A stretch of 64,000 nucleotides of DNA, from positions 61,828-125,827 of IMG/VR virus record IMGVR_UViG_3300032770_000007; one strand, 5' to 3'. The notes under the pieces are model-generated. The model saw nothing but the letters and a program-made list of their open reading frames with translations. It ran no database searches and was not told the origin of the DNA. The position numbers and the translations under genes were made by a program. Of this stretch, positions 1 through 53,943 are shown piece after piece (the stretch's first letter is position 1; each line of letters starts with the position of its first letter). Origin of the DNA: a virus.

Positions 1-500
1 TTCAACGCTAAACTATGTTTTTGTTTAGATTCTTCACTAAGTGTCCAAGTTTTTCCAAGACAAGAATGATGACCTTTGCCGAACTGATTTCCCATCATTT
101 GAATTCTACGTTTTTCACGTATATCTAATCGTTGATTCATTTTAGCAGTTTGGGGTTTAGGTAATCCTTTATGACCCATACCAATTTTACGTTTATGTTC
201 TTCACTTTTAGGACCAGAAGTACCTTCTCCGCCATTAGTATGATTCAACAAAGGCCCTTGATCTAAATCTCTTCGCCCAAATATTGCTATTAGATCCTGT
301 TCAAACCAAAAAGCATCTGATTCAGAATCTACATAAGCGATTTCTATTAAATGATGTAATCCCATTTCATTTAGTATTCTAATACGACCTTGAACAAATT
401 TATTATGCGAACCAAGATCATATATCCGTTTACCTTGACCTTTACCAACATAAAAAGGAAGACGTGTTCTTGGATCAATGTATAGATACGTATAGAACAT
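1..500 (-). CDS. GIY-YIG homing endonuclease with NUMOD3-like tail (partial, runs off window start)
   Basis: Manual translation from ATG at 500: MFYTYLYIDPRTRLPFYVGKGQGKR...GPLLNHTNGGEGTSGPKSEEHKRKIG; YxY..YVG GIY-YIG variant plus SEEHKRKI motif. Confidence 0.8.
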   Translation of the reverse strand, partial: MFYTYLYIDPRTRLPFYVGKGQGKRIYDLGSHNKFVQGRIRILNEMGLHHLIEIAYVDSESDAFWFEQDLIAIFGRRDLDQGPLLNHTNGGEGTSGPKSEEHKRKIGMGHKGLPKPQTAKMNQRLDIREKRRIQMMGNQFGKGHHSCLGKTWTLSEESKQKHSLAL

Positions 501-524: not shown

Positions 525-944
525 TTAGGCTTTGAGTTTGCTTTCTGCTTCGAGAGCTCTTTGACGCCAGTAATCTCTTCTTCTATAGGCCATTGCTATC
601 ATTTGCTCAACACAGCTGGTGCCATCACCAGGCCAAGCAGGCACACTACCTTGATGTAATAAAGCATCTAGAATAGCAATCATGCAATCAGCACTATTAT
701 ATTCTATATCATAATCAGCTACCCAACAATCACCATTCCATCCTCTCCAAAGTGCCTGATACATTCCATGCTTATAATCATATTTTTCTTTAAACAACGC
801 ATCAAAGTTCTTACTAATTTTTCCCTCAGCCACAGCCTTATCATAGGCTGCTTCAATCTCAGGATTATATGTCTTTTTATAGTTTTCTAGAGTATCACTC
901 ATTTGCCACCCTTGGTAATATTTTTGGCAGTGTTTATTATCCAT
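525..944 (-). CDS. hypothetical protein (start probably at MSDTLE, 902)
   Basis: ORF in operon orientation; no recognisable motif. Confidence 0.6.
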   Translation of the reverse strand: MDNKHCQKYYQGWQMSDTLENYKKTYNPEIEAAYDKAVAEGKISKNFDALFKEKYDYKHGMYQALWRGWNGDCWVADYDIEYNSADCMIAILDALLHQGSVPAWPGDGTSCVEQMIAMAYRRRDYWRQRALEAESKLKA

Positions 945-1174
945 TGCTGGAGATTGGTAAGTTCTGTAGCATTTTCCTTGGCTATTTCATTGTTCTTTGT
1001 AGCTATAGATAATGCTGTCTTAGCATCAGTTCCAGCATCCCCAGGTATGGTTAATAGAGGCTTAGCAGGAACCATTATTTCTGCTGGAGGAGTGGGCATG
1101 TATGGAGTTTGTACTTCTACTCTGGTAGTGGTACAGCCAACCAATAATAGAGACAATAATATAAGTAATCTCAT
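899..1174 (-). CDS. outer-membrane spanin (Rz1-like lipoprotein)
   Basis: Signal peptide with lipobox LLVGC, Pro-rich periplasmic part; overlaps end of i-spanin. Confidence 0.85.
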   Translation of the reverse strand: MRLLILLSLLLVGCTTTRVEVQTPYMPTPPAEIMVPAKPLLTIPGDAGTDAKTALSIATKNNEIAKENATELTNLQQWIINTAKNITKGGK

Positions 1175-1563
1175 TTGGTTGCTCCTGTTACTGATTGATT
1201 ATACAAGTCTACCCATTCTTGACTTAGAGCACAAGAAGTAGTTCCATTTTGATTTGTAAGTATAGTCAATGAATTTGCTGCTATCTCAGCCAACTTCTTT
1301 TGAATAGCAGCATTTGAATCTTGTAAGGTTTTGATTTGACCTTGTAACTGATTCACTGAAGTCGCATCAACGACAGTCTGCGTTTTTTGAATATCAATAG
1401 TCTTGTTCTGATCTTTGATTATTTGAGCAGCCTGTTTAGCTTCTTCATGCTGTTCACCTTTTATCCAACCACCACAAAATGCTCCTCCTACGATCAGGAT
1501 TATTAGTCCTACTCGTATCAAAAGAGCATAAGGTTCTGGTATTAAACTTTCAATGAGATTCAT
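1171..1563 (-). CDS. inner-membrane spanin (Rz-like)
   Basis: N-terminal TM helix, coiled coil, C-terminal Cys; directly upstream of lipoprotein. Confidence 0.8.
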   Translation of the reverse strand: MNLIESLIPEPYALLIRVGLIILIVGGAFCGGWIKGEQHEEAKQAAQIIKDQNKTIDIQKTQTVVDATSVNQLQGQIKTLQDSNAAIQKKLAEIAANSLTILTNQNGTTSCALSQEWVDLYNQSVTGATK

Positions 1564-1578
1564 AATAAAAACTCCATA

Positions 1579-1866
1579 TTAGCCATTCTGGCTTGATGTA
1601 TTTTGTCCTGGCTCTGTATCCTGCTTAAGTTTGATAGTTACTCCAGCTGCACCCATGATCGTACCAAAACCAATAGACCAATTTATATAGTCAAATGGTA
1701 GACCCTTATGAAGGACATTCCAGGCTGTCATTGCTAGGTAAAATATTGAACCAAAGAACCAAGATACTCTGGCTAGATCATATGTCTGTCCATCAATACC
1801 AGTCAAACAATGCTTGATTAAAGTATCAAGCAACTTAGGAAGTTTAGGAAATTTTATTCTTCTCAT
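1579..1866 (-). CDS. putative holin
   Basis: 95 aa, two hydrophobic helices, basic N-terminus, located between endolysin and spanins. Confidence 0.65.
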   Translation of the reverse strand: MRRIKFPKLPKLLDTLIKHCLTGIDGQTYDLARVSWFFGSIFYLAMTAWNVLHKGLPFDYINWSIGFGTIMGAAGVTIKLKQDTEPGQNTSSQNG

Positions 1867-2351
1867 ATAGCCTGCCCATCAGTTACCCAATATTTGTAGT
1901 TGTGAAAAAACTGTCCCTGTGTTGCTGCTCCAAGAGGAGTGTTATAATATTCCTTGTAATAGTTCCAAAGACCATTCAAATCAGTGGCAGAAGGTAATGT
2001 ACCAGGTTTTCTGGCATAATGTACTCTGGCCATTGCGATGGCATATGGATCATTATTTATGAGAACTTCTGCGGTATTGTTTCCGCCTGCCAAATCTTTG
2101 ATTTGTCCTGATAGATCATCATGATATTTGAGATAATTTGTCCAGATATCATCATGGTCCTCTTTTTCCATTTGAAATATGCCTCTAGCAGGACCATTGC
2201 TCTGAACTCTAAATGTTCCAAAGGCACTTTCCTGCGCACAGGTAGCCAATAGAAGTTCTTCAGCATTTGAGCTGTAAAGATTTAGTGGTTTGAGAGTTGA
2301 TTCAATCAGATATCTTAAATTTGATGGAGTATATGGCAAATAGGTAGTCAC
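1863..2351 (-). CDS. putative endolysin (lysozyme/transglycosylase-like fold)
   Basis: LLLATCAQES (catalytic Glu-like), GPARGIFQME and YNT motifs; heads the lysis cassette. Confidence 0.7.
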   Translation of the reverse strand: MTTYLPYTPSNLRYLIESTLKPLNLYSSNAEELLLATCAQESAFGTFRVQSNGPARGIFQMEKEDHDDIWTNYLKYHDDLSGQIKDLAGGNNTAEVLINNDPYAIAMARVHYARKPGTLPSATDLNGLWNYYKEYYNTPLGAATQGQFFHNYKYWVTDGQAI

Positions 2352-2359
2352 TTCTCACC

Positions 2360-2563
2360 TCATAAATTATCACTTACCAATCCATTAACATTATATGGTG
2401 GCTTTGCTCTTTTCAAAAACTTTTTGGTTCTGTCTTTGAAGTTTTTCTTCATTTTCATCACTGGATCAAAACCAGCTACTGGACCAGCAGCAGGAGCAGC
2501 ATTGGTGAAGCCACCAGTACCAGCTGCCATTACAGCACCGCCATCTTCTTTGATTATCTTCAT
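2360..2563 (-). CDS. small protein carrying a copy of the major capsid protein N-arm
   Basis: AGTGGFTNAAPAAGPVAGFDPV vs gp23 AGTGGYATAATAAGPVAGFDPI; basic C-terminus. Confidence 0.75.
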   Translation of the reverse strand: MKIIKEDGGAVMAAGTGGFTNAAPAAGPVAGFDPVMKMKKNFKDRTKKFLKRAKPPYNVNGLVSDNL

Positions 2564-2946
2564 TTAAGTTCTTTCAAAACCTCTATGGCTTTTGGATCCA
2601 GATTATATTCATCCACTACTATATCTTGTCCATTCACTCCATAAACAACTGGAGGAGCAAAACCCAAATAATCTACAAATGGCAACAGTACCTCTAAATC
2701 TTTATGCTCTAACTTGAAGAATAATAATCTTGTCCCTTCTGGTCCAAATACATTATAGAATATTACCAAATGGTTCAAGATTAATCGTTCTTTCAAAATT
2801 CCTGTTGTATAATATTTCGTCAATAACCTCTTGATATATTGTATACGATTTATATCTTCTTCAAATTCATTCCAAACCGCATTTGGTTTGTCATATGCTT
2901 TTGCTGCTATCAATAAAAAGTTGTTCGCGGTAACATTATCTATCAC
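2560..2946 (-). CDS. conserved T4-like phage protein (DUF7207-like)
   Basis: NFLLIAAKAYDKP..EFEED..RIQYIKRL..LKERLILNH..NVFG pattern recalled from cyano/pelagi-myophages. Confidence 0.7.
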   Translation of the reverse strand: MIDNVTANNFLLIAAKAYDKPNAVWNEFEEDINRIQYIKRLLTKYYTTGILKERLILNHLVIFYNVFGPEGTRLLFFKLEHKDLEVLLPFVDYLGFAPPVVYGVNGQDIVVDEYNLDPKAIEVLKELK

Positions 2947-2950
2947 AATC

Positions 2951-3325
2951 TCACTCTATTTCTGCTTTGCGTGTCCTCAGGTGATGTTGCCCTTGCCAAA
3001 TCTGTTCTTCATCCCCACCCAGACTATCTAATATATCTAACTCTTCAGGTGTAGTCAGTGTTGCATATACATTATATTTAGCAGACACTTCTTCGTCCAA
3101 ATCAGTATCAAAAATGACATGTAGATAATAGGGAGGTTCTTCTATCCCATCAAATAAAATCTTGAAACATAATTCATCATCAAAGTTATCTATTACAGGA
3201 GCAGTTACTCCATGAGTTTCTAACTTGAGAGCAACAGCATGCCAGGCATCTGGAATGCTATCAAATGTTTGATCTGATAAAGTATCCAGATCATTGTTTA
3301 GATTATCTACATCAGCTTCTAACAT
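2951..3325 (-). CDS. acidic hypothetical protein
   Basis: ORF in operon. Confidence 0.6.
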   Translation of the reverse strand: MLEADVDNLNNDLDTLSDQTFDSIPDAWHAVALKLETHGVTAPVIDNFDDELCFKILFDGIEEPPYYLHVIFDTDLDEEVSAKYNVYATLTTPEELDILDSLGGDEEQIWQGQHHLRTRKAEIE

Positions 3326-3327
3326 AT

Positions 3328-3855
3328 CTAAAATCCATGTAGTTTGAGTTTTGAAATGGAATCTGCGGCCGAAGTATGGAGGATTCCTATACCTCTATTC
3401 TTCATCCATTCCTGAATATTTTGATTTGTATCATCAATAAGAATATTACTTATCACGTTTCTGTTCTCTATTTTGGTAGCATAGTTCTGTTTATGTTCTC
3501 TAAAGACAGCATGAAAATGATCTTTAGGTATACCAAGATACTTTTCACACCAAATCCATTTACCTTCACGAGCATATCTTTGAGAACTTTCTGATGGTGG
3601 TTCACCATTGATCCCTCTAGGAACTGCTGTCAAAATATGTGGCTCATAAGGAACAACATAGTTCCATAGAGTATGAAAGTCTCTAGTTGGTGGTAGATTT
3701 TCCCAAAAGTTAGGACATTCAAATACTCTATGATTTCTGGCTAACTTTTCTTGCCTCGAAACAGGAGCATTCCAATCTATTCCGGTTAGTAGTTTTACTC
3801 CTCTTACAAAATCAACCAGGACCCCATCCATATCAACATATAGCGTAGCACGCAT
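3328..3855 (-). CDS. HAD-family 5'(3')-deoxyribonucleotidase-like phosphatase
   Basis: YVDMDGVLVDF motif I, ILTA motif II, K, ILIDD motif IV. Confidence 0.85.
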   Translation of the reverse strand: MRATLYVDMDGVLVDFVRGVKLLTGIDWNAPVSRQEKLARNHRVFECPNFWENLPPTRDFHTLWNYVVPYEPHILTAVPRGINGEPPSESSQRYAREGKWIWCEKYLGIPKDHFHAVFREHKQNYATKIENRNVISNILIDDTNQNIQEWMKNRGIGILHTSAADSISKLKLHGF

Positions 3856-5462
3856 TATCTACCTCTATTTCCTAATGCTGATATTGCTTTGCTCTTGTTT
3901 AGTTTCAAAGTTGGTTTAGTATCAATAGGATTTGCTTTTGAACCAGTAGCAGTATAGCCACGGAACTGACCCAAGAACTTCTTGCGCTTACCTTCATCAA
4001 TAATCATATCTTCTTTGAGTGTCTTAGCGCGATCCTTTCTAACTATATGAAACTCTCCAGCATCATCCCTAATATGTAGTTCAGTTTTGAAAGGAACCAA
4101 TTGGCTGAAGGTATGTTCACGATGAACACTATGAACAGTCCCTGTTTTGTAACTATTTGTCTCAGGATGAAAATATTTCACTTTTTTACCAACCCAAGGA
4201 TGATTATTGATTTGACCTGCTTTGGTTATTCTACCTTCATCAATGATCATATCTTCATTCAATTCAAAATGAGAAATAGTTGACAGTTTTTCAGGAGTTG
4301 GATGACCAACTAAAGCATGATGATATAACTTGACATTTTTTACATTGTGTGCTTTTTCAACGTGAGTAATACGTTGAGCCATTGTCCATCCTGGAGAATG
4401 AGTAAAAGTATTATCATATGTCTTTTGAAGTTCCATACGAGTTGGTCCTGTATGTGCTTCTGTTATTCCATGCTGTTTACGCAATCTCATAATACCACCA
4501 TGAGCCACATTGCCTGGTGCTACATACTTATGAGCATCCTTGATGTGCTGAGCATGATAATGAGTACCGCCACCAGGTGTAGAATATTGTCTTTCAGAAG
4601 CATTTAGTTTATCAACAATACCCTTTGCTTCTGTTGGTGTATAGAGTTTTGGTTCATCACTTTTTGGCCAGGCATTCTGACGACCACGACCAGCATTACC
4701 TATCACTACATGAGTTGCTTCTTCTTCATTCATTATTGATTCAGCAATCCAACCACCTACATGCCAATGAGTCTTACCTTTATGAGCATGTAATGGTCCC
4801 CATTTCTTAGTATGATCTAAATGATAATCATGAATTTTATTTAGATCGGTATGTGGCGTCTGATGATGTTCAACTTTAGCACGGGATAGCTGAGTATCTT
4901 CATCATATGCACCACCTTCACCATGCTTAAAGCCGCTTCTATGAACATTATTGATATGATCTTGAACATGCTTTACGGTTGGAAATTTGTCAATAGGAAA
5001 GTTAGCATTATAATTATGTGCACCTTCTGTTAAAGATTCTTCTTTCAACTTTTTGTTAGCCAAAGCCACTCCCTTGGCTCTTTTGTCTGCCATCTTCTTA
5101 TGCTTTTCTGCACTAATGTTATCAATACCATATTGATTGGCATAATCTACAGCATGCTTGATTCCAGAGACCTGTGCTTTCCAACGATAGTTGTCAAGAG
5201 TTTTCTTTGAGATTTCTGTTATAGTTTCTTCATCCATGTCAGTATATCTTTTTCTTTCTTCATCATGATGTGCGGTCACTTCTGATTTGGCAACAGGATA
5301 GTTACTCAAACCATTGTTGATCAAAACGTGGGAACCAAAGTCTTGTTTCACGACTCCAAAACCACCCACATGCTTCACGCACGTGCCCACCCAATCAGAA
5401 GGATGGCCATCTTTCCAACCTTCTGTTAGTGTTTCTAATCTGATCTGTAGGAATGATTTCAT
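3855..5462 (-). CDS. His-rich modular internal head polyprotein (putative)
   Basis: CTS-like N-terminus MKSFLQIRLE; repeated (L/I)xE linkers; EDMIIDEG occurs twice. Confidence 0.6.
   Translation of the reverse strand: MKSFLQIRLETLTEGWKDGHPSDWVGTCVKHVGGFGVVKQDFGSHVLINNGLSNYPVAKSEVTAHHDEERKRYTDMDEETITEISKKTLDNYRWKAQVSGIKHAVDYANQYGIDNISAEKHKKMADKRAKGVALANKKLKEESLTEGAHNYNANFPIDKFPTVKHVQDHINNVHRSGFKHGEGGAYDEDTQLSRAKVEHHQTPHTDLNKIHDYHLDHTKKWGPLHAHKGKTHWHVGGWIAESIMNEEEATHVVIGNAGRGRQNAWPKSDEPKLYTPTEAKGIVDKLNASERQYSTPGGGTHYHAQHIKDAHKYVAPGNVAHGGIMRLRKQHGITEAHTGPTRMELQKTYDNTFTHSPGWTMAQRITHVEKAHNVKNVKLYHHALVGHPTPEKLSTISHFELNEDMIIDEGRITKAGQINNHPWVGKKVKYFHPETNSYKTGTVHSVHREHTFSQLVPFKTELHIRDDAGEFHIVRKDRAKTLKEDMIIDEGKRKKFLGQFRGYTATGSKANPIDTKPTLKLNKSKAISALGNRGR
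3989..4256. repeat. 25-bp direct repeat (1 mismatch) encoding linker EDMIIDEG, copies 243 bp apart
   Basis: taccttcatcaataatcatatcttc at 3989-4013 and taccttcatcaatgatcatatcttc at 4232-4256. Confidence 0.9.
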
Positions 5463-48259: not shown

Positions 48260-48807
48260 GCAGTCAGATTATTGTCAATATTCGTAAATGTATAATAAGA
48301 ATAAACAAATGAAGCTGATACTGTTAGAATAGCATCAGCTGATACTTCTGTATCCATCTCAACAGGACCAAGATTAACAGGAAAACAATCCAGAAAAGCA
48401 AATTTGATTTCTTGATTATTCTTGGCGGTATAGATAGATAACTGAGCATCAGAGTATGGTGGTCTGATACCTGTAGAAGGAGGACCACCAGAACCCAAAG
48501 GAGGAGCATTATTTGCCAGCTCACGATATTGAGCAGCTGATACTGGTCTACCAATACCCATCATCCAGTTGAAAATATTATACCAGGCATTCATTTCAGC
48601 ATCAACTAAGAAAGTAACAGTCAATGGTTCATATTGAACTTTGGTTCCTGGAACCTTAAGATTAACAAATGGGGTTGGTTGGGTTGCTGTGCCTAGCATA
48701 ATGCCTGGTACTGCTACCTTTGTACAATAAAAAACTGTGTTGGCTATTCTATCAAATGAAAGACTAAATTTAGTCTTTTGTAAGAGATTTTGAGATAGAT
48801 TTGTCAT
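48256..48807 (-). CDS. gp3: tail tube terminator / tail completion protein
   Basis: NLLQ..KF, VPGI.LG, PG..VQYEPL..FLVD..IFNWM, YSDA.L, F.DCFP; position after gp23. Confidence 0.88.
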   Translation of the reverse strand: MTNLSQNLLQKTKFSLSFDRIANTVFYCTKVAVPGIMLGTATQPTPFVNLKVPGTKVQYEPLTVTFLVDAEMNAWYNIFNWMMGIGRPVSAAQYRELANNAPPLGSGGPPSTGIRPPYSDAQLSIYTAKNNQEIKFAFLDCFPVNLGPVEMDTEVSADAILTVSASFVYSYYTFTNIDNNLTA

Positions 48808-49361
48808 GCTATTATCCAAGAACCACCAACCCAACGTTTCCCTTTATTATGAGCTGGTTTATTGCGTTTATATGGAGCAAATGGTGACAGAAATACTCTA
48901 CCTCTCCAATAACCTTCTGGTGGTATTTTATCCTTATGCACTTTAATATTTATGGTGCCATTTGTATACCAATATTGATTTCTGCTATACTGATTTCCTT
49001 TAGAATGTAATAATGGTTTACCTTTCTTTGATTTACTAATATTTGCAGCTTTTTCTGGAGTACAAGGTCCTCCATCTCCTCCAGGAGTCATATTATAACC
49101 TTTACCATATGTTTGATATTCTTTGATAAAATATGGTTCCATTATATTTTTGGTATGGTTTTCATCTTTAGACATATAAATTTCTTGAACTTCAAATGCT
49201 TCCCAACCATGTTTGCGAATAGCTTGATGAAGATTATACATAGAACCCCTTTTGGCATTTGATCTATGTTCAGCTATCCGTTTATCAATAGAACAAGAAG
49301 TAAAACCTATGTATTGTTTACCATTCTTCTTATTCTTTATCAAATATATTGTACAAAACAT
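48804..49361 (-). CDS. GIY-YIG (Seg-like) homing endonuclease
   Basis: TIYLIKNKKNGKQYIGFT..R..EH, AIRKHG, GYNMTPGGDG. Confidence 0.9.
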   Translation of the reverse strand: MFCTIYLIKNKKNGKQYIGFTSCSIDKRIAEHRSNAKRGSMYNLHQAIRKHGWEAFEVQEIYMSKDENHTKNIMEPYFIKEYQTYGKGYNMTPGGDGGPCTPEKAANISKSKKGKPLLHSKGNQYSRNQYWYTNGTINIKVHKDKIPPEGYWRGRVFLSPFAPYKRNKPAHNKGKRWVGGSWIIA

Positions 49362-49580: not shown

Positions 49581-50993
49581 TCATTTTAGATTGCTTACAA
49601 TAGCCTTACGGTAGTATAGGTTACTGTTGGCAGTTAGAGCTCCTAGTCCCTGTGTGTAACCCTGTGCGAATGGGTTAGCAACCAAGCCATAACGGGTCTT
49701 GAAACCAATCTTAGGCTGATAGGTGTTAGGATCAATTGCACGTACCATCTGCAATGGAACATAAGGACAGTAGAACAAACCTGCATCGTAGGCATTTGAT
49801 CCACGGTATCCAGCAACATAGTAGTCTGCGCCTGATACTGAGTAAGGATCAACGAATACCTTCACCTTACCATTTAGGATGCCAAGGAATGTGCCTCTCT
49901 CATAGTCATCAGGCATTGCAACACCACCAGTAAGTTTATCGAACTTGCTTAGGTAGTCAAGCATTCCTGACATAGCCAGAGCCGATCCCACGTCTGAAGA
50001 GACGATAAGGATATTGCCCTTTCCTCTACGAGTATCCTTCTCGATTCTGTTACATTCTCTTTCAATCTGGAATACCAGACCCTTATAAGCTTCAACTGCC
50101 CATCTACCATATGAGTCACCAGTGAATGATGAACCAGTAAATGGTGTCAAGTTGAATGTACCTACAGAGGTTGATGTCTGAGCACCAACTGATGAGGTAA
50201 TGTAAATATTACGGATAACTTCACGATTGATTTCAGCCAACAGTTCTGTTGAAAGAATGTTAGCCAATTCTGTCTCAGCATCAAGACCATGAATGGCCTT
50301 CAAATCCTGTGCCAGTTCAAGGGTGTATCCAGCCTGCAAGCCACGGCCATTTGCTGTAACCGTAACTTTTTCGATTGAGAAACCCATGTTCTGCAAAGTT
50401 GTACCGCCACCCAAATCTTCTAGGTTAGCAGTTGGCCAGCCACCACCAGCACCATAGGCTGTGTTGCTACCACCAGGATTAGCATTCTGAGCTGAAGCAT
50501 TTGAAAGAGGACCAACAAATGCTAGTGATAGATTACCACCATAATTGTTAGCTTCCTGATACAGAGCTTCATTGTTTACACCATTGATCTGTGCGTTTGA
50601 TGTAGCATATACAGAACGCATTGCGAAGATCAAACCAGTAGGACCGGTCATAGGCTGAACACCGCAGACATCATAGCCCATCAAAACAGGCATGTTTCTA
50701 CGGATCAAACTAATCAGGATTGGGTCAAAACCAGCAACTGGACCAGCTGCTGTTGCGGCAGTAGCATAACCACCTGTACCAGCAAAATTGACTGGAAGTG
50801 TTTCTGTGATCATTCCACCACCAACGAAACCACCTTCAACCAACTGACGACGCTCTTCAGCTAATGAACGCTCTGTGTTTTCCAACAGCACGGCGCAATG
50901 TAGTCTACGAGTAGCATCCTTGATCTTTGGAAGGTCTTCGTGATCCAATACTGGACCCCACTTCTTCAATAGTTCATCGTTATTATATCTCAT
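49581..50993 (-). CDS. gp23: major capsid protein
   Basis: KWGPVLDH, GPVAGFDPILISLIRR, CGVQPMTGPTGLIFAMR, ELAQDLKAIHGLDAE, YCPYVPLQ, IGFKTRYG. Confidence 0.99.
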   Translation of the reverse strand: MRYNNDELLKKWGPVLDHEDLPKIKDATRRLHCAVLLENTERSLAEERRQLVEGGFVGGGMITETLPVNFAGTGGYATAATAAGPVAGFDPILISLIRRNMPVLMGYDVCGVQPMTGPTGLIFAMRSVYATSNAQINGVNNEALYQEANNYGGNLSLAFVGPLSNASAQNANPGGSNTAYGAGGGWPTANLEDLGGGTTLQNMGFSIEKVTVTANGRGLQAGYTLELAQDLKAIHGLDAETELANILSTELLAEINREVIRNIYITSSVGAQTSTSVGTFNLTPFTGSSFTGDSYGRWAVEAYKGLVFQIERECNRIEKDTRRGKGNILIVSSDVGSALAMSGMLDYLSKFDKLTGGVAMPDDYERGTFLGILNGKVKVFVDPYSVSGADYYVAGYRGSNAYDAGLFYCPYVPLQMVRAIDPNTYQPKIGFKTRYGLVANPFAQGYTQGLGALTANSNLYYRKAIVSNLK

Positions 50994-51022: not shown

Positions 51023-52240
51023 TTATGATCTTGCGACCTGTCTACTAATACCTTCAACATATCTTGCCATTGCACCACTTACTTCTTTCGTTTCAACTGG
51101 GGTTTCCAGTGATTCTGCCAAAGCAATTTGTGATTGTGGCTTCTTATTCACCTGGTTGTTAGAGAAATACTGACCACGTATAATGTTCAACTTTTCTCTA
51201 TATTCACCTTCTGTGGTGAACTCAACACTCTCTGTGAGCGTCCTGAATTTTTCTACTTGTGTGGCGGTGAGCCCTTCACAAACAGCAGAGATTAATTCGG
51301 TTTTCTTAGCTTCATTAATCTTTTTATTCAGTTCTACATTTGTATTTAGCGTTTCATTAATTTGAGCCTGTAGTTCCTCTACTTTAGCAGTCAAGGCTTC
51401 TACAACATCAACCTTCTCTTCTGGAATGTTCATGTTGTGCTCAACAAACAAATTACGCAAATCTTCAATAAACTCTTCAGTGATTTCGCTCTTTAGACCT
51501 GATGTAACAGCAACTTCATTCTTTGACATCCATTGCTCAACCATGTGGTCCAAATAACTATCAACCTGACTTTCTAGTTCTTCTTTGATTTCTTCTACTG
51601 CTTGTTCTGAAGCTTCAAGGATTTCCTTTTCAAGCTTTTCAACTACCATTACAGCACGTGTAATGACAGCAGCTTCAAATATAGTCTTTGCTTTTGTCTT
51701 GAAATCTTCTGATAGTTCAAAACCAGCAAACATTGCGGCCATGTCTTCTTCAACGGATAGAGACTTCATAGTCTCGCGAATACCTTCTAGACGAGCAACT
51801 CTTGCTGCTTCAATCTCTTCTGCTGTTGGAACAGTTTCTTCTTTATAAAGAGTATCAGCTGCTTCACCAGTTCCTGGAGCAGTATCAGCATTACCACTTT
51901 GTGTAGCTAGTGGTGGTTCTGCATCTGGTTCGCCTCTATTTGCGGCACCATCAGTATCATCCTTTTCTGGACCCTTGTGCATTGGTTCACCAGCAACAGC
52001 TGGTCCTTTTGGAGCAGCAGCCTGTGAACGATGTGCAGCAGTTACCTGACCAATATTTGTACCTTCAGGCTTTGTGGTTGTAGCACCACCCAAGTCTACA
52101 ACAGCACCTGCGGCTGCAACAGCACCAGGATCACTGCCACGCTCTGGCCCTCTATGCATTGGTTCTTGACCAGCCTTAGCAGAAGCCTGTAGGACGTCTA
52201 CGGCTGCTTCTGATAATGTTTTTCTTTTGGTGGTTGTCAT
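51023..52240 (-). CDS. gp22: prohead core scaffold protein
   Basis: LSEDFKTKAKTIFEAA, VDSYLD..VEQW, MARY; position. Confidence 0.93.
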   Translation of the reverse strand: MTTTKRKTLSEAAVDVLQASAKAGQEPMHRGPERGSDPGAVAAAGAVVDLGGATTTKPEGTNIGQVTAAHRSQAAAPKGPAVAGEPMHKGPEKDDTDGAANRGEPDAEPPLATQSGNADTAPGTGEAADTLYKEETVPTAEEIEAARVARLEGIRETMKSLSVEEDMAAMFAGFELSEDFKTKAKTIFEAAVITRAVMVVEKLEKEILEASEQAVEEIKEELESQVDSYLDHMVEQWMSKNEVAVTSGLKSEITEEFIEDLRNLFVEHNMNIPEEKVDVVEALTAKVEELQAQINETLNTNVELNKKINEAKKTELISAVCEGLTATQVEKFRTLTESVEFTTEGEYREKLNIIRGQYFSNNQVNKKPQSQIALAESLETPVETKEVSGAMARYVEGISRQVARS

Positions 52241-52284: not shown

Positions 52285-52929
52285 TTACAACTTGTTGATA
52301 AAATGGCTAAATGCTTTGAGTGTTGTTTCTTCCAAATTCTTACTCTTAGCATTCTTTACTTCTTGGTAGATAGCATGAATATCTGCTTCTTGAATTAGAC
52401 CATTATTCCAGACCCATTCCCTTTGTTCCATTAGTCCACGAACAAATGCATCAGGTGCTGAAGGATCGGCAACTATATCTGCACCAGTAGAAAGGTGATA
52501 GTCATCCTGGACCATGTTTATACCTTCTACCATTTTCAAAGAACCAACACCTCTTGAAGAAACACCAATTTGACCACCATCCTCAATGAGTGCTCTAACT
52601 GTATTTCCCATAGGTGTTTCTAATATTCTTGCTTTACCTATCCAGTTATTACCTTCTGATTTCAAATTAACAATACGATGAGAAGCACGATCAAGATTGA
52701 TAGTTGGACTTTCTGGATGACCTAGTTCGCCCCAGGCACAGTTACGATCAACTTTTTCCTTTAGATAACGTGCTACTTCACGTTCAAGAATAGCTCTTGG
52801 ATAGATACGGCTATTGCGATTTTTTTGTTCAGCCTGTAAGAAAACTCCCTCAATATAAAGGGATTTCTTACCTTCCTTTTCCTCAGTTAGGTAGCGAACG
52901 TCTTCTATTTGTTCAATCAATAAACGCAT
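52285..52929 (-). CDS. gp21: prohead protease
   Basis: IEGVFLQ..KNRNSRIYP, GELGHP, GVSSRGVGS, DIVADPSAPDAFV. Confidence 0.97.
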   Translation of the reverse strand: MRLLIEQIEDVRYLTEEKEGKKSLYIEGVFLQAEQKNRNSRIYPRAILEREVARYLKEKVDRNCAWGELGHPESPTINLDRASHRIVNLKSEGNNWIGKARILETPMGNTVRALIEDGGQIGVSSRGVGSLKMVEGINMVQDDYHLSTGADIVADPSAPDAFVRGLMEQREWVWNNGLIQEADIHAIYQEVKNAKSKNLEETTLKAFSHFINKL

Positions 52930-53192: not shown

Positions 53193-53468
53193 TTACAGTC
53201 CTAGACTGTGTCTCCTACGCATACTTCTGGCTCTTTTCATCAATATTCTCGCTCTTTTTGACTTGAGTTTGAATTTTGCTCTTCTGGCTCCTCTCTTACG
53301 ATGAAGCTTTTCAGAAGCACTCATTCTTACAAGTTTTCCATGAGATAATCTAAATCCCTTTACATTAGAGATTTTGACATTTCTCTGAACTTTACCACCA
53401 CGTATTCTTATTCTTACCCTCTTTATTCTTGGACCTACTTCTGTTAGAAAGGTCGCAAAACTACCCAT
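53193..53468 (-). CDS. gp68: basic prohead core protein (gp68-like)
   Basis: MGSFATFLTE then very Arg/Lys-rich (VRMSASEK..RKRGAR..RSMRRR..LGL); position. Confidence 0.7.
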   Translation of the reverse strand: MGSFATFLTEVGPRIKRVRIRIRGGKVQRNVKISNVKGFRLSHGKLVRMSASEKLHRKRGARRAKFKLKSKRARILMKRARSMRRRHSLGL

Positions 53469-53469
53469 T

Positions 53470-53943
53470 TTAGACGTAACCAAATGGTGGCTGATTTTCT
53501 ACATTTGCCCAAGCACCACAAAGGGTATTGGCTTTAAAGTTGACTATCAATGTATAAGTATCATTAGCATCCACATTGCTAACAAATAGATTGATATCTC
53601 CAGTAGCATTAGCACCAAGAGTATTTGGTATATAAACTTCAAAATCACCTGATTGATATTTACCCATGGTAACTATAGTCTGATTAGCATTAGCTCCAGA
53701 TGACTGAGCACTTGCATATTCTAATGATAAAAAACCATTAGCTATACCACAAGCAAAGGCTATTCTAGTTAATTCAATGATACAGTTACCAACTGAAGCA
53801 TTCGCGCCAGGTAATGTATTTGCAACAATAATCTTATTATTAGAAACTGCAGTTGTAGTGTTATATTGGCCAGTAACCTTGAATGTTGAAGTATAATCTT
53901 TGGTCCAAAGCTTTGTTGTAACTGGTGCATTGAATGTTGCCAT
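53470..53943 (-). CDS. putative virion structural protein, Ala-Asn rich
   Basis: Beta-rich composition, GANATGDI motif, located in the head module. Confidence 0.6.
   Translation of the reverse strand: MATFNAPVTTKLWTKDYTSTFKVTGQYNTTTAVSNNKIIVANTLPGANASVGNCIIELTRIAFACGIANGFLSLEYASAQSSGANANQTIVTMGKYQSGDFEVYIPNTLGANATGDINLFVSNVDANDTYTLIVNFKANTLCGAWANVENQPPFGYV

Follow-up and report, generated by a model that had tools for sequence, protein, structure and literature searches.

A small protein of a T4-like phage carries a free copy of the start of processed gp23 and resembles T4 gp61.1 in build

The window analysed here comprises the 64,000 nt at the end of an IMG/VR virus record of 125,827 b, itself 69% complete. 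It comes from a T4-like myovirus whose major capsid protein, gp23, is 54–62% identical to the gp23s of cyanomyoviruses. The inspection of the minus strand showed the gene for a 67-aa protein to be present exactly where it was first described, immediately after a gene coding for a DUF7207 protein (Table 1). The two genes overlap in the sequence ATGA, which holds both the start codon of the small ORF and the TGA stop of the DUF7207 gene. DUF7207 is present in 507 phage records, which include cyanophages and phages of Stenotrophomonas, Sinorhizobium, Caulobacter, Pelagibacter and Methylophilales; it was also sought in T4, where it was not found. Its structure model is all-alpha and confident (pLDDT 87.8). 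A comparison of this model with the PDB gave no match at E ≤ 0.001, and its matches in BFVD were uncharacterised phage proteins only. A complex prediction for DUF7207 and the 67-aa protein scored 0.00, a result that is neutral on whether they pair. Two late-promoter-like words occurred at or below the frequency given by chance: TATAAATA matched once and ATAAATA 18 times. Of the sequencing runs listed as containing the stretch, none was of RNA; one, a DNA run of a wetland metagenome, may be its source.

Table 1. Coordinates of the small ORF, its upstream partner and the head genes discussed in the text
Feature	Position in window	Strand	Basis or remarks
Whole 67-aa ORF including stop: leader, N-fist copy, Lys/Arg-rich tail, L-x-S-D-N end	2360..2563	-	
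Six-residue leader MKIIKE, ending I-K-E, putative prohead-protease site	2546..2563	-	
N-fist copy, residues 7–36	2456..2545	-	
Core 22-aa match to gp23, residues 14–35	nt 2459–2524	-	
Lys/Arg-rich tail, residues 37–54	2402..2455	-	
DUF7207 gene (PF23837, phrog_407), conserved upstream partner of the small ORF	2560..2946	-	Pfam; synteny
Major capsid protein gp23	49581..50993	-	470 aa; Pfam Gp23 E 7e-118
gp23 residues 65–92, after I-T-E(64), equivalent of the T4 N-fist	50718..50801	-	Alignment to T4 gp23
22-aa match inside gp23, residues 71–92	nt 50718–50783	-	Pairwise alignment
gp22-type scaffolding protein	51023..52240	-	Pfam T4_CASP E 2e-65
gp21-type prohead protease	52285..52929	-	Pfam Peptidase_S77 E 4.8e-40; phrog_207

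A probable lysis cassette lies directly downstream of the small ORF (window positions 899–2351, minus strand). Its 162-aa protein resembles lytic transglycosylases/endolysins of Vibrio and Pseudoalteromonas phages (153 records). After the gene for this protein come a small membrane-type ORF and then two overlapping ORFs, the second of which has a lipoprotein-like LLVGC start and is spanin-like by eye. The content of the cassette suggests a Gram-negative, non-cyanobacterial host. A 535-aa His/Lys-rich protein with a leader ending in L-E is encoded at 3855–5462 (minus strand), in the co-directional run to which the small ORF belongs.

No gp24 gene follows gp23, as the original prediction had pointed out; the next ORFs code for a GIY-YIG-looking protein and then for a tail-tube-like protein. 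A search for a second Gp23-family gene or gp24 paralogue found none in the 69%-complete record, which holds one Gp23-family gene only. Two ORFs, at 48804–49361 and 3–500 (both on the minus strand), have N-termini that resemble, by eye, those of GIY-YIG homing endonucleases. One of them sits between gp23 and the tail-tube-like gene, the position taken by gene 24 in T4. A 96-aa ORF of the head module (53193–53483, minus strand), located immediately upstream of the gene for the protease, is extremely rich in Arg and Lys and has an F-L-T-E site near its N-terminus, which makes it a candidate internal or core protein.

Residues 14–35 of the 67-aa protein align without gaps to residues 71–92 of gp23, and 17 of the 22 positions are identical. 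The two genes use synonymous codons at seven of these 17 identical residues and the same codon at the other ten. Both segments are preceded by an I-x-E site: in the small protein I-K-E (residues 4–6) lies seven residues before the match, and in gp23 I-T-E (residues 62–64) lies six residues before it. The end of the small protein is basic, with 10 K/R after the match; the putative mature peptide (pI 10.1) has four D/E in total. The original prediction had correctly read the 17 identities, the synonymous codon differences, the two I-x-E sites and the Lys/Arg-rich tail from the letters of the DNA.

The likeness between the two proteins exceeds what their composition yields by chance. The Smith-Waterman score of the pair was 96, while that of shuffled sequences averaged 29.7 (sd 4.4, maximum 59; z 15), and none of 2000 shuffles reached the observed value. 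A HMMER-scored search of the phage's own 125.8-kb record found the match to gp23 with an E of 1.1e-7. The match between the small protein and gp23 was missed by composition-adjusted BLASTP (the best piece reached 14.2 bits, E 1.2), because the segment is rich in Ala and Gly. The 67-aa protein also matched phrog_696 over residues 10–48 (E 5.5e-13). Comparison with Pfam gave no family, and no match to the Gp23 domain; a blastn search of phage genomes with the region was negative, and a PDB sequence search with the protein gave 0 matches at E ≤ 10. The small ORF is a real stand-alone copy of the start of processed gp23, and only the ~30 residues that follow the cleavage site are common to the two proteins.

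The alignment to T4 gp23 sets residues 65–92 of the window gp23 opposite the start of the mature T4 protein. The T4 literature, cited here and below from excerpts of the papers, names this part of the molecule the N-fist (residues 66–91, the ~26 first residues after cleavage; PMC7136217). Before expansion the N-fist region is disordered and lies inside the prohead, facing the scaffold core (PMC9958956, PMC9546572, PMC7136217). After cleavage and expansion it is found on the outer surface of the capsid (PMC9958956, PMC9546572), in contact with four subunits, two in its own capsomer and two in the adjacent one (PMC9958956, PMC9546572, PMC7136217), and it helps to form the site for Soc (PMC9546572). 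Disorder is also described for the five portal-facing fists (PMC9958956, PMC9546572, PMC7136217), which have no partner capsomer (PMC7136217). Given the T4 alignment and this definition of the N-fist, the ORF is a free copy of the maturation junction and N-fist, not of the longer N-arm named originally.

Relatives of the 67-aa protein were detected by tblastn in 346 phage records, all with cyanophage-type names; long forms (T4-GC 426, phrog_696) occur in 294 records. In IMG/VR, 21 of the 80 loci kept were stand-alone genes, and the remaining 59 were gp23 genes or fragments that share the motif. When a profile was built from ten short forms, it recovered at least 3429 clusters of proteins of 33–133 aa (E ≤ 1e-3, among 8000 candidates scored). 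Among the 120 clusters listed there was no Pfam domain, and every name given by the source was 'hypothetical protein'. The copy is conserved and stand-alone, as had been proposed, with relatives across hundreds of cyanomyovirus genomes and in metagenomic clusters. By these comparisons of sequence, the 67-aa ORF belongs to a widespread, unnamed family of small proteins of T4-like phages.

The family has two forms. The short forms, of 60–85 aa, consist of a leader, the copy and a basic tail; the L-x-S-D-N sequence at the C-terminal end of the 67-aa ORF is conserved. The long forms span 120–290 aa, and most of the cyanophage members are long forms of 180–290 aa. They mostly begin at the motif, without a leader, and the copy is followed in them by a small alpha/beta domain and then by a long helix. 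In one such protein and its relatives (record L016, positions 2989–3567; cyanophage T4-GC 426) the domain is confidently modelled as ~48 residues of beta-beta-alpha-alpha-beta, and the helix spans ~85 residues. A fold search with a long-form model returned coiled-coil matches only, all to the long helix, which left the small domain effectively uncovered. RefSeq and PHROGs give the cyanophage T4-GC 426 forms the name 'major head protein' (in records L093, L095 and L100, for example). When the Gp23 domain (PF07068, HK97 fold) was sought in the long forms, Pfam gave no match. This label is thus misleading, since the N-terminal motif is all that these proteins share with the capsid protein.

The homologues lie at one syntenic place, directly after DUF7207 (T4-GC 198) and mostly with the ATGA overlap. 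The order DUF7207-then-copy is common to cyanophages and to the Sinorhizobium phage phiM7. At the sensitivity used, no stand-alone copy was found in three complete IMG/VR genomes of 236–285 kb, nor in Stenotrophomonas phage DLP_6 when its own fist was used for the search. The gene would therefore seem to be dispensable for some T4-like phages.

A site of the type [LIVFM]-x-E is located 15–23 residues before the GPxAG anchor in 127 of the 130 family proteins compared, a redundant set weighted toward the top of the search list; the other three begin at the motif. The P3 residue of these 127 sites is I in 106, L in 10, V in eight, M in two and F in one. The two proteins with Met at P3 have four-residue leaders and are doubtful. 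The Glu of the site is invariant in the ten short forms aligned. The leaders of the relatives are amphipathic, 9–17 residues long, and end in I-I-R-E or L-K-E, while that of the window protein has six residues. The motif recognized by T4 gp21 is given as L/I-X-E, with the cut after Glu, and short N-terminal propeptides are described as targeting T4 internal proteins to the core (excerpts of PMC9026906). The leader of the 67-aa protein would accordingly end at a putative prohead-protease site, and the gp21-type protease encoded in the window is the presumed processing enzyme. The basic character of the tail is general among the short forms: in 126 of 126, the 25 aa after the motif have a net charge of +5 to +10.

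When the T4 genome was searched with its own fist, a second place was found, gene 61.1. The gp61.1 protein has 54 aa, is annotated as a 'hypothetical protein' and belongs to phrog_1823, with long forms in other Straboviridae (phrog_2086). Its 10-residue leader, with I-K-E at the end, is followed by a T4 fist copy and then by four lysines. Aligned to T4 gp23 by BLASTP, it gave an E of 6e-9 (17 of 37 residues identical), and the alignment spans the cleavage site. Relatives of gp61.1 were found in 1432 phage records, and in T4-type phages the gene lies just upstream of the primase gene. This same location is seen for relatives of 158–163 aa in Acinetobacter phage Kimel, Vibrio phage V07 and a Klebsiella phage. 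In these three proteins an L-x-E-type site precedes the copy, which is close to the C-terminal end, and none of 2000 shuffles in each case matched the resemblance of the copy to the phage's own gp23.

Other candidates stand next to DUF7207. The 141-aa protein encoded right after DUF7207 in Sinorhizobium phage phiM7 has at its end a V-E site, a fist-like stretch and a basic tail, and its copy resembles the phage's own, very different, fist over a 35-aa segment (1 of 2000 shuffles). The candidates of Caulobacter phage Cr30 and Pelagibacter phage HTVC008M, chosen by eye among the ORFs near DUF7207, were marginal (53 and 98 of 2000 shuffles, respectively), and have head-targeting-like leaders. Around DUF7207 in HTVC008M (L139:1078–3361) and Cr30 (L127:1889–2502) there are small ORFs with MK(T/S)F-type leaders that end in Glu; some of them are extremely basic, and together they look like a cluster of head-targeted proteins.

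The N-terminal domain of the 158–163-aa proteins is homologous to that of the proteins that follow DUF7207 in phiM7 and HTVC008M (phrog_2086, phrog_18642; E down to 5.5e-22), which ties these lineages together independently of the copy. The direct comparison of the window branch with T4 gp61.1 by hhalign was weak (probability 41.9%, E 2.7e-4), extending over 14 columns that cover the leader, the site and the start of the fist. The gp61.1-type grouping used here spans phrog_1823, 2086, 18642, 696 and 3286. Judged by its build, gp61.1 is T4's own member of the family. In the literature searched, which included few subscription journals, neither the likeness of gp61.1 to gp23 nor a function for 61.1 was described, and the mentions found were from genome annotation only.

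The original prediction proposed that the peptide should co-vary with the gp23 of each phage. This holds across clades, where the signal is strong; within the cyanophages the effect is genuine but weak. For 22 cyanophage-type pairs, the 22 residues before the anchor have on average 9.27 identities with the phage's own gp23 versus 7.79 with those of others. Permutation of labels gave a p of about 5e-4, a value that overstates independence on account of the relatedness of the phages. The phage's own gp23 ranked first in one of the 22 phages and among the top five in 12. In seven of the 22, copy and gp23 belong to different fist types, a 'TLQTTGYTGG'-type gp23 being accompanied by an 'AGTGGFSGS'-type copy. 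In a 10 × 10 matrix of copies against fists, 2 of 200000 label permutations reached the sum of the diagonal; six of the ten rows peak on the diagonal, and the matrix is structured by clade. The N-fist type seen in a copy is that of its own clade.

Recent gene conversion was considered as the cause of this likeness and was rejected. Of 358 identical residues that copies share with their own gp23, 142 (0.40) have the same codon in both genes, and the corresponding share across genomes is 0.393 (n = 6863). Synonymous sites are thus randomised, which indicates that the likeness is kept at the level of the protein.

The one experimental hint as to location comes from a single phage, S-SCSM1, in which the homologue SSCSM1_97 is annotated as 'virion protein'. 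For this phage, 45 proteins were obtained by MS of CsCl-purified virions and marked in the genome figure (excerpt of PMC9602691). The fist peptide of SSCSM1_97 differs from that of the S-SCSM1 gp23, so a cross-assignment between the two is unlikely. The T4 cryo-EM papers, in the excerpts available (PMC9958956, PMC9546572, PMC7136217), make no mention of an extra fist-like peptide.

The best-supported reading of the 67-aa protein is that of a gp61.1-type small head-pathway protein resembling the cut end of the capsid protein. Members of the family share a modular build, with a leader or leader domain ending in (I/L/V)-x-E, a copy of the junction and N-fist of the phage's own gp23 (~25–30 residues) and a lysine-rich stretch. 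The protein would be taken into the prohead, where the gp21-type protease would trim it after Glu6. Such trimming would release a 61-aa product that begins like mature gp23, and this likeness might lead to its recognition by the partners of the N-terminal segment of gp23. Before expansion these partners could be the scaffold core or the protease, and afterwards, possibly, the surfaces on which fists dock; the gp22-type scaffold is a candidate for a partner common to the gp23 N-terminus and its copy. The product would then stay in the head as a minor component. This sequence of prohead entry, trimming and retention as a minor head protein through the partners of the gp23 N-terminus is the likeliest of the mechanisms considered, but it is put forward tentatively, as a possibility that falls a little short of probable.

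A role as a transient regulator of assembly is somewhat unlikely. Here the protein would act as a pseudo-substrate of the protease or as a competitor within the core, tune the timing of maturation or the size of the head, and then leave. The likeness of T4 gp61.1 to gp23 spans both sides of the scissile bond, and some long cyanophage forms, which start at the motif and have no leader, would be uncuttable there. Mutations that affect head length map to the N-terminal region of gp23, which faces the core before expansion (excerpt of PMC9546572), and small cleavage peptides are thought to escape from the prohead (excerpt of PMC9958956). However, the virion-protein annotation in S-SCSM1 speaks against a protein that leaves, and both the conserved Lys-rich tails and the C-terminal domains of the long forms would be superfluous in a simple competitor.

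The trimmed peptide might instead dock at sites of the gp23 lattice that lack a fist, around the portal or at vertices without gp24, and serve as a rivet or cement with its tail on the DNA; we regard this as unlikely. In its favour, the copy would stand first in the mature product, as in gp23*, and the co-variation of the copy with gp23, the virion-protein annotation of one homologue and the failure to find a gp24 paralogue in this record are all in keeping with it, as are the five portal-facing T4 fists that have no partner capsomer (PMC7136217). The geometry, however, is unfavourable. The fist of the expanded capsid is outside, and a peptide docked in its manner would miss the DNA unless it threaded the shell (excerpts of PMC9958956 and PMC9546572). 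Every gp23 has a tethered fist of its own, and the T4 papers, in the excerpts cited, describe no empty site. The original suggestion that the peptide fills vacant grooves at the portal with its tail on DNA consequently does not fit what is described for T4, where the fist ends on the outer surface. The end of the T4 tail is net acidic, and a net-basic, DNA-binding tail is therefore not universal. T4, moreover, has both a family member and gp24, so the gene is not a replacement for an absent gp24. A bolder form, in which the fist would dock during expansion wherever a tethered fist is missing or orphaned (the portal-proximal ring, or the vertices of heads without gp24) and the lysine tail would remain on the DNA within, riveting the genome to the shell, is distinctly unlikely. 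If true, it would define a new class of capsid accessory protein, based on self-mimicry and present in T4 itself.

It is highly improbable that the protein is an anti-defence decoy, a free segment of gp23 that distracts a host sensor of the capsid protein. The model for such a decoy is the Gol peptide of gp23, which is sensed by Lit, and mimicry of a capsid segment under protein-level selection would agree with it. The same build is, however, found in phages of cyanobacterial, SAR11, rhizobial, enteric, Acinetobacter and Vibrio hosts, which argues for a shared role in the head pathway rather than for one directed at a single host system; the protease-type site and the head-targeting-like leaders also point into the prohead. 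Finally, a chance low-complexity match or a decaying duplicate of gene 23, with no function, can hardly be entertained: the segment is Ala/Gly-rich and composition-corrected BLASTP misses the match, but no shuffle reached the observed score, thousands of intact homologues conserve leader, site and tail, and residues have been kept while synonymous sites were randomised.

The family spans T4-like phages of very different hosts and, with the unstudied gene 61.1, appears to include T4. The part of the capsid protein that has been copied is the one that is cut, moves outward and locks the capsomers together. The sorting of proteins into the T4 prohead core is called "mysterious" in a recent review (excerpt of PMC9958956). 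The existence of a T4 member means that T4 genetics and proteomics can address whether likeness to the N-terminus of the capsid protein provides entry to the head, slows maturation or serves as a structural plug. A further outcome of the analysis is the correction of the name 'major head protein', which hundreds of cyanophage genes bear and which misleads.

Among known proteins, T4 gp61.1 is similar in its small size and in the order of its parts, that is, a leader ending in I-K-E, a copy of the junction and N-fist of its own gp23 and a run of lysines. It differs from the window protein in the length of the leader (10 residues versus six), in its acidic tail end (pI 5.0 versus 10.1) and in location, 61.1 being directly upstream of the primase gene while the window gene follows DUF7207 and precedes lysis genes. 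The cyanomyovirus proteins T4-GC 426 and T4-GC 1363 (phrog_696) are clear homologues at the same place after DUF7207, but they are mostly long forms that start at the motif and have an extra domain and helix. The internal proteins IPI–IPIII of T4 are likewise small and have an N-terminal propeptide that ends in L/I-x-E and is removed by gp21; they are lysine-rich and packed with the DNA (excerpts of PMC9026906 and PMC3012670), whereas the packaging of the window protein is only putative. Copying of gp23 is not described for the internal proteins in these excerpts, and the leader of the window protein is shorter than their 10-aa targeting sequence. T4 Soc, compared by description only, is also a small accessory head protein, with a binding site formed in part by N-fists, and the excerpt describing it mentions no protease-type leader (PMC9546572). 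The capsid protein gp23 itself (PF07068) has the HK97-fold Gp23 domain, which neither the 67-aa protein nor the long forms contain. The segment copied corresponds to the N-fist of mature T4 gp23 (66–91), which starts right after the maturation cleavage. The gp23 fist remains attached to the HK97-fold body and docks between capsomers, whereas that of the window protein is free and joined to a basic tail.
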